Positions 2-15,962 of a DNA stretch of 25,523 bases are shown in pieces. Below the pieces are notes generated by a model. That model had not been told where the DNA came from. It worked only from the letters and a program-made list of their open reading frames with translations, and did not search any database. A program made the translations under genes and the position numbers. Each line of letters starts with the position of its first letter. The first letter of the stretch is position 1. This DNA comes from an archaeon (lineage in GTDB: Archaea > Halobacteriota > Bog-38 > Methanoflorentales > Methanoflorentaceae), in contig DASVJT010000144.1 of NCBI GenBank assembly GCA_036385775.1, forward strand, positions 1-25,523, written 5' to 3'.

Positions 2-238
2 GCGGATCTTCACTCAGTTTTGAATCTAAATGCCATTGCCATCGGCCTTGGGCTTGAGAACATTGAGTACGAGCCTGAGCAGTTTCCCGGTCTGGTCTAC
101 CGGTTATCAGAACCTAAAGTGGTCGTTCTTTTATTCGGTTCAGGCAAACTGGTTGTCACGGGCGGTCGAGTGCCCGAAGACGCGGCTAATGCGGTCGATC
201 GAATCGTGAAGGAGCTTAAAAGTCTGAGCCTAATGTGA
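2..238 (+). CDS. tbp: TATA-box-binding protein, C-terminal repeat (5'-truncated by window edge)
   Basis: Frame is open from base 2: [67 protein letters not shown] and [10 protein letters not shown] are the archaeal TBP signature. Confidence 0.96.
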
Positions 239-9838: not shown

Positions 9839-9949
9839 TTAAGTCCCCTCCTTTTATGGTGGTGGTAGTGACCACCATTTTTCTAAAACACGTAATAAGG
9901 CCCCCTAAGGAAATATATGTTGTTGTTACGTCCGCTTGTTACAGCGTTG

Positions 9950-10013
9950 CCAAAATAAGAGGCTCTCGAAGGGTAAACTCGGCATGAAAAACTTAGGGGG
10001 TAAAACGTTTTTA
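9950..10013. repeat. Dispersed repeat, copy 1
   Basis: CCAAAATAAGAGGCTCTCGAAGGGTAAACTCGGCATGAAAAACTTAGGGGGTAAAACGTTTTTAG. Confidence 0.88.
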
Positions 10014-10269: not shown

Positions 10270-10394
10270 CTTTTTCTCTCACCTCCAAGTATCTTAACGG
10301 AAGCAAATCTGCATCAATGCTTGCCATATAAATTATATAGGGACCTGGAGTCTCCTTTCGAAATGATAAAACACTTAGGTTTAGGGGAATTTTA

Positions 10395-10473
10395 CCAAAA
10401 CTAGAGGCTATCGAAGAGTAAACTCGGCATGAAAAAACATAGGGGATAAAGCGTTTTTAACTACCTCAAAAAG
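10395..10473. repeat. Dispersed repeat, copy 2
   Basis: CCAAAACTAGAGGCTATCGAAGAGTAAACTCGGCATGAAAAAACATAGGGGATAAAGCGTTTTTAACTACCTCAAAAAG. Confidence 0.88.
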
Positions 10474-10572: not shown

Positions 10573-10618
10573 GTGATACAGAATGTGCGTCACATTGCGC
10601 ACACAAACTCTGTATCAC
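10573..10618. other. Inverted repeat / RNA hairpin
   Basis: Perfect 10-bp GTGATACAGA/TCTGTATCAC outer stem plus a TGTGCG/CGCACA inner stem. Confidence 0.65.
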
Positions 10619-10705
10619 GCCGGGGTACACAGTGACATGTCGTCGGTCCTATTGGGGGTGAGGAAGTCCTTACTGCCAAAACACCAAAAAGGGGAGTCAA
10701 ACAAA

Positions 10706-10852
10706 ATGAACGAACTATTAACTGAAACCGTGCAGGGTACCGTCTGTAAATTCGATCTCCATTCTGAATGCGCCAGTGGAGAGGCTGACGCCGCTGTATG
10801 TGCACGATGCGTCGCGGAATCTGCAGCTGAGATCGTTAGAATACAAGTATAG
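10706..10852 (+). CDS. 48-aa Cys/His micro-protein (C-x4-H-x2-C-x9-C-x2-C)
   Basis: GGGGAG RBS; MNELLTETVQGTVCKFDLHSECASGEADAAVCARCVAESAAEIVRIQV; tandem paralog follows. Confidence 0.8.
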   Translation: MNELLTETVQGTVCKFDLHSECASGEADAAVCARCVAESAAEIVRIQV

Positions 10853-10883
10853 AGGAGCTAGGAAGGAGGGCAAAAAGATCGCC

Positions 10884-11024
10884 ATGCAACTAAACGAAAT
10901 TGTGCTGAACAACTACTGCCGCTACGATCTCCATTCCGGCTGTGTAAGGGGAGAAGAGGACACCCTCACATGCACCAAGTGCGTCGCTGAGTCGGCTGCC
11001 GAGATCGTCAGAACACAGTTATAG
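10884..11024 (+). CDS. 46-aa Cys/His micro-protein, paralog of 10706-10852
   Basis: AGGAGG RBS; MQLNEIVLNNYCRYDLHSGCVRGEEDTLTCTKCVAESAAEIVRTQL; identical ligand spacing. Confidence 0.8.
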   Translation: MQLNEIVLNNYCRYDLHSGCVRGEEDTLTCTKCVAESAAEIVRTQL

Positions 11025-11150
11025 ATTGTGGGTAGGGGCCGCAAGGCTCCTGCTTTGTTCTTTTTTTCTAAGGATGTCATAACTTTAAGACCACTCCGCA
11101 CCGCTATTCGTCAATCATTATTCAGAGGGCACCCTTTATTTCAATCCAAC

Positions 11151-11396
11151 ATGAACGAGGATTGCGTAAAGGTCGATAAGCTCCTAAGACAGCTTGCAGA
11201 TTACAAAAACGAATACGCGGACATGGCCGCCGAAAAACTTTCACGGAAGTGCTCTAGCAGTTGGGGCGCTTACCGCTACCTGCTAGACCGCATTCACGAT
11301 GTATGGCTCCCTGATAGCGCCAGACAGCCGGTGCGACATCATCAAAAAGATACAGGTACAGTTGAACCAACAGCGAGAGTACGGCTGGGAGTATGA
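11151..11396 (+). CDS. Hypothetical protein (81 aa)
   Basis: ATG 11151 within the ORF 11028-11396; co-oriented with the neighbouring small genes. Confidence 0.45.
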   Translation: MNEDCVKVDKLLRQLADYKNEYADMAAEKLSRKCSSSWGAYRYLLDRIHDVWLPDSARQPVRHHQKDTGTVEPTARVRLGV

Positions 11397-11503
11397 GGTA
11401 TCGTGAAATGGGTGCCAGGGCGTGACTGATACCGTCAACAGAAAAAACCGATCATGCTAAAAGTCGACCATGATCATGTAAAAAGTACGACGGGGAGGCA
11501 AAA

Positions 11504-11764
11504 ATGATTGAGAAGGGATTAATCATAACTAGCAGCGATGCGGAGCTATTGAGCAATGCACTTTCAGAAGTGAAAACAAAAGCCTATGAAGAATCCGAGG
11601 CTCAATTAGATGATGCTCAAGCGCTTGATGCACTCGTGTCGTGCTTCAGGAGCGCCGAGAGTGATGGACACGAAAAAGTAAGCCATCATTCGTATTTTAG
11701 CCCCTTACGCAAGCGCCTGATGCTAGGCACGATTGTCGATATGAAAGGCGAGGAGGCCAAATGA
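11504..11764 (+). CDS. Hypothetical protein (86 aa)
   Basis: GGGGAGG RBS; stop overlaps the next ATG (ATGA). Confidence 0.6.
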   Translation: MIEKGLIITSSDAELLSNALSEVKTKAYEESEAQLDDAQALDALVSCFRSAESDGHEKVSHHSYFSPLRKRLMLGTIVDMKGEEAK

Positions 11765-11862
11765 ATTCACTTCAGACAAAGGTCATAGCTGTTATAATAG
11801 TCCTCATGCTAGTATTCGGACTTCTGGCTTTCTACCTTTCAATTCGAGGGGGGCTAATTTGA
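11761..11862 (+). CDS. 33-aa single-pass membrane micro-protein
   Basis: GAGGAGG RBS and ATGA coupling; MNSLQTKVIAVIIVLMLVFGLLAFYLSIRGGLI. Confidence 0.7.
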   Translation: MNSLQTKVIAVIIVLMLVFGLLAFYLSIRGGLI

Positions 11863-11963
11863 TAGAAATGCTGCATCAGGAACGATACTGACTTCGGGCC
11901 CAAACTGTTTGAAGAAAAAAGAATAGGAATAGTTAAGACACCAATCACCACTTGCATAAGCGT

Positions 11964-12470
11964 ATGCAATTGAAACCGATAATTGCGATAATTGTTCTTT
12001 CGCTTGTAGCTGCCTCTTTGCTAGTATCGGGGTGTACTACAACGAATAACACAGCGACAAACCAACCTACAACTAGCGATATGTCAGTCACCGTGAAATC
12101 GGTTGCTTTATCACAGCAAGACCAATTAGGTGTGAATAAACAAGGCTACAAATTTGTTGCCTATAATTGCACCGTGAATAATACTGGCACAAAAAGCAGG
12201 CCGGTCGGTTACAATTCATGGGAGTTGCGAGATATGCAAGGGGGCGTTTATGCGCCTCTGTTGGCCACTAACGTATCTGGGACAGAATGGTCTAGAATAA
12301 CAAACGGGAATTGGTGGATTCCCACTATATCAAAGCCTGGATATGTATTACACGGTGTTGTCGTTTTTGAAGTGCCTCAAAACGCTACGCTTACCTCTTT
12401 AACTTACAACGACGGGGTTACGAAAACAGTCACGACGCTAATATTTCAGCCGTATAGCGTGTTCCTTTAA
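11964..12470 (+). CDS. DUF4352-like lipoprotein
   Basis: Signal peptide with LLVSGC lipobox; YKFVAYNCTVNNTG...WELRD..G..Y and GVVVFEVPQNA..LTYNDG match the DUF4352 Ig-like pattern. Confidence 0.8.
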   Translation: MQLKPIIAIIVLSLVAASLLVSGCTTTNNTATNQPTTSDMSVTVKSVALSQQDQLGVNKQGYKFVAYNCTVNNTGTKSRPVGYNSWELRDMQGGVYAPLLATNVSGTEWSRITNGNWWIPTISKPGYVLHGVVVFEVPQNATLTSLTYNDGVTKTVTTLIFQPYSVFL

Positions 12471-12622
12471 ACCTCTCCACATCTCCTTCCCCTTTATTTC
12501 TTTTTCGATTTAATGCACGTGCGATATTAAACAACTAAATCCTTCTAGTAATGAGAAGAGAGCGATGTAAAAGAGTGGACATGAGGTGATTGTCCGCCCT
12601 TTCATGCGGCAATACCACTTAG

Positions 12623-13306
12623 CTACATCATCCCAGAACCAAAGCCATTGCCCATGTGCTCCTGCATCTCCTGCTGCATATCAGAGCGCATGTCCGCGTT
12701 CATTCCTTGCCCCATGTACGGACCCATGCCATAGCCATTTCCGGCATACCCGTGCATATCATCCCACATGTGCTGCCACATGTTTTGCTGATACGGCGCT
12801 TGTCCTGTGGCACCGCCGGTAATAACCATACAGTAGTAAGGCATAAGCGATGAGGTGCCATGTTCCACGGCCGCCCCTCTCTGGGTATTCGCGTTAAAAC
12901 CTGACCACGCCGTCGCATTCTGCTGCACCGAAGCGTACCCCTGCCCCATGAACATGTTTTGAATGGCGAGGAAGTGTGCCTGCGCCGTTGATGCGTTATT
13001 GCACGCTTGGACGCTCACGACGTAGGTGCCGTTACTATCCCTCACGGTGCCGTTGTAAACCGCAATCCCTACTTGCGGACTTGGTTGCAGTGAAAACGGT
13101 GTCGCCATGGTAAAGTTCAGCTGTTGCATCGTGGTTCCGAGGTACTGGATGACGGATTGGTTGCCGGCAGCCGTTGTTGTGGTTGTTGCTGTGCTGGCGC
13201 TGAGAGTAGGCGTTGGCGAAGACGTTGAAGAACTCGTGCACCCTGCAGCGAGAACGGCTACGAGCATCACTACCGCTAATGTCCCTGCTAAAAACGATTT
13301 TTTCAT
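12623..13306 (-). CDS. Lipoprotein with S/T linker and Met/His/Gly-rich C-terminal tail
   Basis: MKKSFLAG...VLAAGC lipobox, TSSSTSS linker; tail NMWQHMWDDMHGYAGNGYGMGPYMGQGMNADMRSDMQQEMQEHMGNGFGSGMM. Confidence 0.88.
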   Translation of the reverse strand: MKKSFLAGTLAVVMLVAVLAAGCTSSSTSSPTPTLSASTATTTTTAAGNQSVIQYLGTTMQQLNFTMATPFSLQPSPQVGIAVYNGTVRDSNGTYVVSVQACNNASTAQAHFLAIQNMFMGQGYASVQQNATAWSGFNANTQRGAAVEHGTSSLMPYYCMVITGGATGQAPYQQNMWQHMWDDMHGYAGNGYGMGPYMGQGMNADMRSDMQQEMQEHMGNGFGSGMM

Positions 13307-13779
13307 GTTGAAACCTCTAAACTATTCAAACTAAGTCAGTCCCGCACAGCTTGAGCTATAAATCTTTGGCGTGTTATGCGCAGCGCTGACTTGAAGCTTA
13401 GTTTAAACCAAATCCTTAAGCGCATCCAATAGTGCTTTTCGTTCAACTGAGTCAGTCGGATATATATAAAAATCGACGCCTCGGCCCCTACCACGTCGTT
13501 GTCGTTCTACCTCAACATGACCATAAAGCTCCAATTCAGCGATGAGCGCTGAAAAAGTTTTATGCGAAACCTACTCACGACCACTGAGCGCATGATGTTG
13601 TTGAATTCCCGATAAACTTCGGTTGATGATTGCTTTCCTTCCTTACTGTAAACAATTTCCAGCGATATCTTACTTACAAGAATGGCAACTCATAATGTTC
13701 TTTGCGATCTGAGAAAGTCCACCGAACAATACAGCGATATTATTCAGTGGGATCGGTCAAATTGAGCATACATACTTAC

Positions 13780-13890
13780 GCACGGGGTGAGCGGAATCGA
13801 TTGAAAGCACTAAAGCATCCGTTGCCTGAGCACGTATATGATGTTTATATGAAAAACTGGGGAGCGTATCTATTACGGCTTGATCCCTAA
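13780..13890 (+). pseudogene. Gene 3' fragment ARGERNRLKALKHPLPEHVYDVYMKNWGAYLLRLDP, homologous to 6974-7055
   Basis: Nucleotide and amino-acid similarity to the 6974-7055 copy; no convincing start. Confidence 0.55.
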
Positions 13891-13955
13891 TTGTCCGATT
13901 CTGTATCCCAAGGTTCCAGTGCTTGTTCTGCTAACTGGTAACTAGGAATCTTATG

Positions 13956-14432
13956 CTAGTCCAGTTTCAAAAACTCTTTTATCCGCTCTTCTGCTGGAAT
14001 TGCCTCTGACCACGCGTTCTCAAATGATGTGCGGAGATACTCAGCATAGACAGGACTCTCGCTCCAGAAGGCAGTGGTAGGCGTATCAAGCGTGTATTCT
14101 TGGAAGCCGATGTTTATCGAGCTTATGCTCTGCTGCTTATCGCCTATGAGCATGAAGGTGTCGTGGAACTGGTCACTATGGCGCAGGTCTTCGCCGATAT
14201 CCAGTCGCATCCGCGCACCTTCAACGTTGGCGCGCGATATAGAAGTAATACCTCTGACTACCCCGCCGTTTTCAATGAACCGCTTGGCGGTTTGCATGGT
14301 ATCATGCGCGCCGGCGACAGATAAAAATGAAGGAGAAGAGAGATAGACAACCTCGTGCTTGGCTGCTTCAAATATCCCTAAAACAACCGCTATGGTGTCT
14401 TTAACATCGTTGACAATTATGCCGATAGGCAT
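13956..14432 (-). CDS. Stand-alone TrmB-type C-terminal (effector/PLD-like) domain protein
   Basis: AKHEVVYLS...GGVVRGIT...EDLRH...FMLIGDKQQSISSIN...AFWSESPVYAEYL..SFENAWSEAIPAEERI; parallels the C-terminus of the adjacent TrmB; no HTH. Confidence 0.8.
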   Translation of the reverse strand: MPIGIIVNDVKDTIAVVLGIFEAAKHEVVYLSSPSFLSVAGAHDTMQTAKRFIENGGVVRGITSISRANVEGARMRLDIGEDLRHSDQFHDTFMLIGDKQQSISSINIGFQEYTLDTPTTAFWSESPVYAEYLRTSFENAWSEAIPAEERIKEFLKLD

Positions 14433-14539
14433 AACGAGAGAGTCTGAATCAAACGTATAAATATTTACGTAACAACACGGGGTTACTCGGCCTTTTGAAA
14501 AAAGGGGGAAATTATGCAGTCACCGACCTGTAGCAATAA

Positions 14540-15381
14540 TTAGCCGTCAGTCTGCGGTGGACCTTTCTCAAGCAGCTCTAGTATTCGCTCTTCTGCAGAA
14601 ACTGACTGTCCCCACATTATTTCGAAGGTCAACATAAGGTATTGAGCAGAGATGAGCTTATCGGTCCACAACGCTGCCATTTCTTGATCAAGCGAGACGC
14701 GCGTCATGTTCACATTAATCGCGCTCATACAAGCGGTTCGGTCGAATATTGTAAACTTTATCCCACGCTTATCTAAGTAACGCACCTCTTCTCCGTTAGC
14801 TATCATTTCTTGCGCTATCTCGATGATGGGGTAAGAGAGATTATATAGAAGGCGCGAACCCTGCCTCCGCGTGCCATAAAATCATAGGCGGCTTGGTTGA
14901 TGCCAAACTGTGAGGCAATGAGGACCGCGGACTCGGGAACAACCATCACCCACTCTTCCTTCATCGAGGTTACAACAGGTAATAGTGTAGCGACGAGTTC
15001 CTTTACATTCTTGATGATCTTGAACGTCGTCAACTTATCTGTCGGGTGAAATCGCTGTTGCCGTGCCAATTCCGGCAGCTCCTGCTTTCGCACCTCCATC
15101 TCGCGAAGTTCGCTCTCTTGTATTTTAAACGCGGCTTCGAGAGCGACCTCAAGGTCCACAGCGGCGAATGCTGTAAGTGAATTGTGCGATGGACGTACCA
15201 TGCCTTTTTCAATGAGGCTCGTGAGCGTCCGGTGCATGTCGTCAAGATAGGTGTGAATCGATTTGGCGAGCGGTAACGGTGTCTTGGGGCCGTACTTAAG
15301 CAAGTGAAGATATGTCTGTGCCTCCTTTTCACTGAGCCCAAACCCAATTAAACGGTGTGTGAACTCGTCATCCATGGTCAT
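14540..15381 (-). pseudogene. TrmB-family transcriptional regulator split by a 1-nt frameshift near 14855
   Basis: N-terminal wHTH (LIGFGLSEKEAQTYLHLLKYGP...LTSLIEKGMV); the other frame continues NLSYPIIEIAQEMIANGEEVRY...YLMLTFEIMWGQSVSAEERI. GAGGTGA RBS. Confidence 0.88.
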
Positions 15382-15387
15382 TAGTTA

Positions 15388-15575
15388 TCACCTCGTAAGT
15401 GAGCTGAATGATTGATATGCGTTACTTGAAGAGGGGTGAAGCACGCCGTTCACAGCGTTGGCGAGGCGCTCTGCACACGTAGTACAGTCTGGATCGTTTG
15501 TGTACAAGCAGCCGAAGTGGAGGCCATACCAGCAGCCCCTTTTTTGTGGTCGTTACGTTCGTCTATAACGTTCAT
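15388..15575 (-). pseudogene. Third Cys/His micro-protein (C-x4-H-x2-C-x7-C-x2-C), frameshifted in an A6 run
   Basis: ATG 15575 (MNVIDERNDHKK); a -1 shift at the A6 run (T 15540-15545 on +) gives RGCWYGLHFGCLYTNDPDCTTCAERLANAV... with the stop inside the TrmB RBS. Confidence 0.65.
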
Positions 15576-15638
15576 CTCCGATCCACACTACACAGAGTGG
15601 TTTCATAAGGCCGCATGAGTCAGCTTTTACGCTAAAAA

Positions 15639-15713
15639 CCAAAATAAGAGGCTCTCGATGGGTAAAGTCGGCATCAAAAACTGAGGGTAAAGCGTTTGAG
15701 CTACCTAAAAAAA
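15639..15713. repeat. Dispersed repeat, copy 3
   Basis: CCAAAATAAGAGGCTCTCGATGGGTAAAGTCGGCATCAAAAACTGAGGGTAAAGCGTTTGAGCTACCTAAAAAAAG. Confidence 0.88.
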
Positions 15714-15735
15714 GGAAGGAAGCGCTCCCGCTTCC
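15707..15735 (-). terminator. Hairpin + T7 tract
   Basis: GGAAGCG-CTCC-CGCTTCC (15718-15735) followed on the minus strand by TTCCTTTTTTT. Confidence 0.45.
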
Positions 15736-15962
15736 GTGAGGGCAGCGTCCGCATTTTCTATTTCTTACGCGCTGTTGCGACAAGAAAAAACCACCAGCCA
15801 CATCGAAGAGCACAGTGGTTGCCGTGTCAGCTTTTAGCTTGATTTTTTGCGCGCTCAGTTGCATTATTGTTATAAGAACTATTGTTATAAAAATCGCCGA
15901 ATAAAAGTGTGACACGCGTTCTCTGTCACGATAGCTTAAGAGCTGTGTGCCGCAACATAAAA

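Follow-up and report, generated by a model that had tools for sequence, protein, structure and literature searches.

A multi-copy family of small four-cysteine proteins with its own upstream palindrome, tied to TrmB-like regulator genes in one lineage of uncultured Halobacteriota

TrmB regulators bind palindromic sites as dimers, and we know of no small Cys-rich partner described for them. Genome annotation usually overlooks small Cys-rich proteins or sets their limits wrongly, and few have a known partner. The relevant archaeal precedents are the C(P)XCG micro-proteins of Haloferax volcanii, HVO_0758, HVO_2753 and their relatives (PMC6562870, PMC10716476, PMC11241148), and Brz from Halobacterium salinarum, a small zinc-finger transcription regulator encoded directly upstream of bop (PMC2253796). 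Here we analyze a 25,523-nucleotide stretch of archaeal DNA (contig DASVJT010000144.1 of assembly GCA_036385775.1, hereafter the window) that carries three genes for Cys-rich mini-proteins: a tandem pair, copies A and B, and a divergent copy C on the minus strand. We find that the mini-proteins form a taxonomically restricted, multi-copy family present solely in one uncultured Halobacteriota family that carries mcrA, that these mini-proteins have a dedicated upstream palindrome, GTGAC-N11-GTCAC, and that both their gene neighborhoods and their phyletic distribution link them to an expansion of TrmB-like genes in the same lineage. Our preferred reading, to which we give a probability of roughly 45%, is that copies A and B are functional and copy C is decayed, and that the proteins would act as metal-binding partners or modulators in a lineage-specific network of TrmB-like regulators.

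Copy A (positions 10706–10852, plus strand) is an intact gene of 48 codons for an acidic protein with the spacing C-x7-C-x9-C-x2-C, and copy B (10884–11024, plus strand) is an intact gene for 46 amino acids that follows in tandem. The two proteins share 57% identity across 44 residues (E = 3e-18). An earlier interpretation made from the DNA letters alone (the sequence-only reading) had described tandem 48- and 46-residue genes with a shared Cys motif, and both translations read exactly so; its remark that the open reading frame (ORF) track mis-delimits the pair is borne out as well, the called frames being over-extended upstream to 89 and 82 residues. Purine-rich, Shine-Dalgarno-like stretches lie 5′ of both genes, that of copy A being the GGGGAG run at 10691–10696 (plus strand). 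As a terminator-like GC hairpin with a T-run (11030–11065, plus strand) comes after copy B and closes the unit, A and B look like one two-gene unit with a common promoter region. Single genes of the same type (type 1, defined below) in paralogous units likewise end in a hairpin and a T-run. A second, conserved hairpin is located in the 5′ leader (10652–10679, plus strand). In an RNAalifold comparison of eight type-1 units this leader hairpin shows covariation, with pair 52/59 being GC in four units and UA in four, and pair 49/62 being CG, UG or UA; Rfam and tRNA scans of the whole window returned no match. Homologs of copy A with up to 94–98% identity are present in the same genome and in one sister genome, and a near-identical tandem pair is found in a related fen metagenome-assembled genome (MAG; locus L025).

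The window copies and 106 family members, scanned singly, have no match in Pfam, and NCBIfam, PHROGs and PADLOC likewise returned no family for the mini-proteins: the best E-values are ≥0.003, occur in one or two of the 106 members and concern unrelated families. No member matched a Pfam zinc-ribbon. The suspicion that this was not a recognized family has held, and the homologs retain the Cys pattern; neither a Pfam match nor a loss of the pattern was seen. What did not hold is the number of three members. The host genome (G000), a MAG of 1.43 Mb that is 65% complete, contains nine copies, five of type 1 and four of type 2, and the family is large, lineage-restricted and divided into these two main types. 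Type 1 has the signature C-x2-DLHS-x-C, as in copies A and B, and type 2 the signature C-[WYL]-YG-x-[HR]-x-GC, as in copy C. BLASTP detects no similarity between copy A and copy C; profiles of the two types align in hhalign with a probability of 91.7% (E = 8e-07), with the four Cys and the His in register, and intermediate sequences bridge them.

We searched for further relatives in two ways. Word-indexed searches over 5.8 billion proteins gave 20, 24 and finally 151 clusters. The public proteins in these ∼151 clusters (90% identity) are small, bear the name “hypothetical” throughout and lack Pfam domains; the few for which a source is named come from a “Halobacteriota archaeon.” An exhaustive profile search over 1.84 billion representatives (clusters at 50% identity) matched 58 clusters, all of 31–125 amino acids except for one spurious protein of 789 residues (P0060), a repeat protein in which C..N.SDP.C..C occurs by chance and which we rejected as a relative. 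At the level of genomes, profile matches are found in 21 of 23 genomes of one Halobacteriota family (f1, comprising two genera), with 1–15 matches each and mostly 4–15, whereas none occurred in 177 genomes that represent 25 further families of the phylum. Closed genomes of f1 carry mcrA, which makes its members methanogens or close kin, and these hosts have come to light only in metagenomes of wetlands and soils. In the second genus, a type-2 gene usually has a divergent type-1-like gene next to it on its 3′ side. Divergent paralogs often stand in tandem pairs, and frameshifted or truncated relatives are common; public databases list frameshifted type-2 copies as chimeric proteins, P0067 and P0098 among them. 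We considered fusions to larger domains and rejected them, the long frames near some matches being upstream read-through or a helical extension of ∼50 residues. This N-terminal extension belongs to one subfamily; some genomes have it fused, and others encode it in a separate ORF that overlaps (L084, G008:C53; L083, 1785–2176).

The genes of the family encode proteins, and purifying selection acts on them. Median Nei-Gojobori ratios of nonsynonymous to synonymous substitution rates (dN/dS) are 0.35, 0.23 and 0.38 in three sets, and the ratio is below 1 in 189 of 193 pairs. Simple codon-position counts yield only a modest excess at third positions, and dN/dS is the clearer measure. Length differences among members correspond to whole codons, and the Cys columns hold in members that share as little as ∼20% identity. 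Members have 45–90 residues with a core of ∼45 residues, in which C-x7-C-x(7-10)-C-x2-C is followed by a helix; type-2 members differ in how long their C-terminal tails are and in the sequence of these tails. Of the four Cys columns, two show no exception in 106 sequences, one more is occupied in ≥90%, and the fourth is nearly invariant in an alignment of 34 sequences. The sequence-only reading had counted five conserved Cys/His ligands. The four Cys stand, with few exceptions or none; ∼90% of members have the His, and intact members occur with Arg, Tyr or Asn in its place (CLYGLRFGC, CYYGLYPCC and CYFDLNSEC), and the likely ligand set is therefore Cys4 rather than Cys/His.

All seven GTGAC-N11-GTCAC sites in the host genome lie upstream of family genes, and almost all transcription units of the family have this palindrome 5′ of them. 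To census the palindrome we used 53 distinct members whose loci had been picked independently of the motif: it is present upstream in exact form in 37 and with at most one mismatch in 42, and the members that lack it are mostly second genes of tandem pairs. Its spacing is fixed at ∼131–157 nucleotides before the first Cys codon. Four closed genomes contain 8–13 palindromes each, compared with 0–2 occurrences of a reversed control pattern. The operator-like inverted repeat 5′ of copy A (10573–10618, plus strand) is rearranged and contains a one-mismatch site, GTGAT-N11-GTCAC, which is located 172 nucleotides before the first Cys codon and aligns with the palindromes of paralogous units. Because the half-sites are invariant and the spacer is variable, a protein-binding site fits better than an RNA stem. 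Where no mini-gene is close by, the palindromes stand before TrmB-like genes, a further helix-turn-helix (HTH) gene, and genes for secreted or membrane proteins. At one locus (L080, G010:C1:761300–763400) an unrelated ORF of 145 residues has the front end of a type-2 gene joined to it, from the palindrome through the leader to the first codons (MNVMATNV), which suggests that the promoter-leader module has been shuffled onto other genes.

Since the palindrome is associated most consistently with the mini-genes themselves, the mini-proteins might be DNA-binding zinc-finger autoregulators that act on it, as dimers or as heterodimers of tandem paralogs, with the TrmB-like genes as mere members of the regulon. 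The frequent tandem pairs of divergent paralogs would suit such heterodimers, the core of type 2 is about neutral to slightly basic, and Brz provides a precedent for a small archaeal zinc-finger protein in transcription control (PMC2253796). We nevertheless consider this explanation unlikely: type 1, including copies A and B, is strongly acidic (median isoelectric point 4.6, net charge −4), the helix has few basic residues, no similarity to a DNA-binding fold was found by Foldseek or by a profile search of the PDB, and the palindromes that precede TrmB-like genes without a mini-gene fit autoregulation by TrmB. In our preferred reading, the palindrome would instead be bound as an operator by the TrmB-like paralogs.

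The link to these regulators begins in the window, where the gene directly 3′ of copy C (14540–15381, minus strand) has the winged HTH domain of TrmB (PF01978; 37.8 bits, gathering cut-off 25.6; E = 1.7e-09). At its C-terminal domain, where a TrmB protein would have a sugar-binding effector domain, there are only weak PLDc_2 matches (E ∼0.07), as would be expected for a diverged TrmB effector domain; scores for the NCBIfam TrmB equivalogs stay far below the cut-offs. Two types of operon recur. In the first, the mini-gene is followed by a TrmB-like gene of 280 codons and often by a gene for a C-domain-only protein of 158 residues; the mini-gene stop overlaps the TrmB-like start at two loci (L047 and L058), and the gap is 6 nucleotides in the window and up to ∼40 elsewhere. 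In the second, found in at least seven genomes of the genus, the mini-gene precedes a gene for a TrmB-type protein of ∼450 residues with two HTH domains. The TrmB-like subfamily has 5–20 matches per genome in 13 of 13 f1 genomes compared with 1 of 107 other genomes (E ≤ 1e-15). Despite its incompleteness, the host genome contains at least 10 paralogs (contigs C104, C129, C137, C153, C220, C240, C17 and C87, and positions 13956–15381 of the window, minus strand). They come in the 280-residue, the ∼450-residue double-HTH and the 158-residue C-domain-only form; many are broken, and several stand in tandem arrays. In a core cluster of another genome (L083, G010:C1:1918500–1936500), mini-genes and TrmB-like paralogs are interleaved with other genes, which by eye include two geranylgeranyl-reductase-like genes, a UbiA-like prenyltransferase gene and a methyltransferase gene. 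These names, assigned by eye, hint at an isoprenoid or lipid pathway as a possible target of the network.

The overlapping or nearly abutting stop and start codons would also be expected if the type-2 ORFs were leader ORFs whose translation, rather than whose product, controls the TrmB-like gene, and if the 5′ regions were RNA elements. These regions are highly conserved in nucleotides, and the type-1 leaders contain the covarying hairpin described above. Leader ORFs are, however, hard to reconcile with purifying selection on the amino acid sequence and with Cys columns that are invariant in very divergent members; many units moreover stand alone with a terminator of their own, and Rfam has no match in the window. 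We regard this explanation as very improbable.

How the mini-proteins could work in such a network can be outlined in our preferred reading. As members of the regulon of the TrmB-like paralogs, they would act by protein–protein contact, as partners or modulators of the TrmB-like regulators. The acidity of copies A and B argues against DNA binding by type 1, and these two proteins would more likely bind protein. The four Cys of the mini-proteins would hold one metal ion, most likely zinc, with a β-hairpin and the first turn of a helix supplying two ligands each. An AlphaFold2 model of a 51-residue type-2 member has strands at residues 8–10, 13–15 and 19–21 and a helix at residues 28–45, and it places Cys-13 and Cys-21 on strands and Cys-30 and Cys-33 in the first helix turn. 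The predicted layout resembles a treble-clef-like metal site, and the proteins may be zinc fingers. Foldseek returned no match for the model in the PDB, and the best match in BFVD has E = 3.7.

A Cys4 site can hold Fe as well as Zn. The mini-proteins could handle metal or redox equivalents as an output of the regulon, for instance through a metallochaperone-like thiolate site or through an Fe or Fe-S Cys4 center with which a strict anaerobe would sense or buffer oxidants. The sole match of a sequence-profile search of the PDB is the CxxC-helix metal site of the HMA domain of ZntA (1mwy), and genes for rubrerythrin, cupredoxin, ArsB, Zip and an arsenate-reductase-like protein are found near some copies. 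That match is not significant (E = 0.94), Pfam finds no HMA domain, 48 residues are too short for the HMA fold, and the neighbors are not conserved between loci. An output function of this kind appears improbable to us, about as much so as DNA binding by the mini-proteins.

Several of our results weigh against the proteins being metal-binding partners of the TrmB-like regulators. The structural prediction for copy A (34 sequences) reached a mean predicted local distance difference test score (pLDDT) of 54.7 and is unusable, and the type-2 model described above (106 sequences) reached 70.5, which corresponds to moderate confidence only. The 280-residue TrmB-like gene comes next after only ∼10 of the 38 type-2 copies sampled, and type-1 units, A+B among them, are free-standing, with neighbors that differ from locus to locus. 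The joint restriction of the mini-proteins and the TrmB-like subfamily counts as a single evolutionary event, since the f1 genomes are kin. Finally, the palindrome could be bound by a different regulator or by the basic type-2 proteins themselves.

Copy C (15388–15575, minus strand) is a decayed type-2 gene. Its frame at 15388–15543 (minus strand) translates as KRGCWYGLHFGCLYTNDPDCTTCAERLANAVN..., and no start codon follows the preceding stop. The sequence-only reading had recovered CWYGLHFGC-x7-CTTC-AERLA by repairing a single slip in an A6 run; the motif does read so, but the single slip gives way to three lesions when the assembled sequence is aligned to seven intact homologs from the same and related genomes. 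The first lesion is a 2-nucleotide deletion at the A6/G4 junction (15540/15539), where the homologs have AAAAAACGGGGG. The second is a separate 2-nucleotide deletion at 15563/15562, and the third a G-to-A change that turns ATG into ATA at 15566–15564 and removes the usual start of the family, the one called in most homologs (MATNV...). The gene is now split over three different reading frames. One added A restores the Cys domain and leaves the N terminus out of frame: because there are three lesions and not one slip, the repaired N terminus reads MNVIDERNDHKK... as compared with MNVMATNVTTTKNG in the family. We considered the A6 run as a site of programmed −1 frameshifting or transcriptional slippage and set this aside, the zero-frame context not being a slippery heptamer. 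Given the two deletions and the lost start in the homolog alignment, decay is the simpler reading, and copy C is probably a recent pseudogene.

The rest of the copy C cassette is mostly decayed as well. The tblastn match of the TrmB-like gene falls into two frames, with a frameshift near 14851, and its intact paralogs have 280 residues. The third gene (13956–14432, minus strand), which encodes a TrmB C-terminal-domain-only protein of 158 residues, is the sole intact gene of the cassette. Its product is 71% identical to that of the third gene in an intact paralogous cassette on contig C153 of the same genome (L047), where genes for 66, 280 and 158 residues follow one another; the 66-residue type-2 paralog of copy C is found there at L047 391–591. 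The palindrome of copy C (15909–15929) lies 395 nucleotides (outer edge) before the first Cys codon, as compared with the usual ∼131 nucleotides. Homology to intact promoters ends ∼45 nucleotides 5′ of the first ATG, just downstream of a copy of a 66-nucleotide dispersed repeat (15636–15701) that is part of extra DNA between the palindrome and the core promoter of copy C. This non-coding repeat has three copies in the window (9947–10012, 10392–10457 and 15636–15701), which are 71–77% identical to the reference. An alternative frame, MK[PL]LCVVWIGDERY..., runs across type-2 genes and is open for at least 60 codons (L047 360–551; window 15553–15915, minus strand).

At one locus in another genome, two family copies flank a provirus-like stretch with genes for a terminase large subunit and a primase-polymerase, beside a gene for an Mrr-type nuclease (L058, G010:C1:1189686–1209895). 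Frequent pseudogenes, a multi-copy family and the position of copies in variable islands, including the one beside this provirus-like stretch, are features that would suit precursors of ribosomally made, Cys-modified peptides or the cargo of mobile elements such as addiction or anti-defense genes. A modifying enzyme or transporter is not found as a conserved neighbor, however, PHROGs and PADLOC have no matches, conservation spans the whole peptide and not a leader alone, and a chromosomal core cluster is syntenic across the genus. This explanation strikes us as scarcely credible. Elsewhere in the window, an open-ended ORF at 2–238 (plus strand) resembles by eye the C-terminal half of a TATA-box-binding protein.

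We put forward a wider reading more tentatively, and regard it as doubtful: the mini-proteins may be part of a regulatory system invented by a single uncultured family of peat and fen methanogens, combining a burst of TrmB-like genes, a dedicated operator and a new Cys4 fold. The mini-protein would then be a metal- or redox-sensitive subunit or an anti-factor of the TrmB-like regulators, and copies A and B would be acidic members acting in trans. The fixed palindrome, the two conserved types of operon with TrmB-like genes and the strict restriction to one lineage provide handles on the family. If the mini-proteins do modulate TrmB-type regulators, they would represent a new mode of control for a widespread family of archaeal regulators and would open a way to study how methane producers that have not been cultured regulate their genes. 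Otherwise, the family is still a clean example of a taxonomically restricted gene family with fast turnover.

Comparison with described systems places the mini-proteins next to several known kinds and inside none. The ZntA site (PDB 1mwy) is locally similar, with C-x2-C-A-x2-[LV]-x-N-A-V at a helix start, but the remainder of the β-α-β-β-α-β fold is absent and the mini-proteins have two additional conserved Cys; with no match to PF00403 and 46–48 residues in copies A and B, compared with the ∼65 residues of the ferredoxin-like fold and its MxCxxC loop, they are not HMA domains. Zinc ribbons and rubredoxin-like proteins have two CxxC knuckles on β-hairpins, whereas here the one CxxC is at a predicted helix N terminus and the other pair is C-x7-C. 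The gene 3′ of copy C and its paralogs resemble the TrmB family in having its winged HTH domain; the mini-proteins themselves are not TrmB. Like Brz, which acts in transcription control, they are small and Cys-rich and encoded immediately 5′ of, and co-oriented with, a linked gene system; unlike Brz, to which no homology was detected, they form an expanded family linked to TrmB-type genes, whereas Brz is not known to belong to such a family or to have a TrmB-type partner. The Haloferax C(P)XCG micro-proteins are similar in being archaeal, shorter than 70 residues, built around one small Cys4 domain, present in multiple copies and mostly without an assigned function, with regulation suspected. 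That class has two C(P)XCG knuckles in <70 residues, which the mini-proteins lack: their consensus, C-x-Y-[GD]-L-H-x-x-C ... C-x2-C-[AV], has C-x7-C and a single CxxC without the Pro/Gly signature, never followed by Gly, and CPxCG does not occur. They also differ from it in lacking sequence similarity, in belonging to a different lineage (one methanogen family) and in having a palindrome of their own. As the C(P)XCG motif is absent and no similarity in sequence or fold was found, we rate the mini-proteins as a new family within a known kind, the small archaeal Cys4 proteins, and one whose regulatory context is unusually clear.

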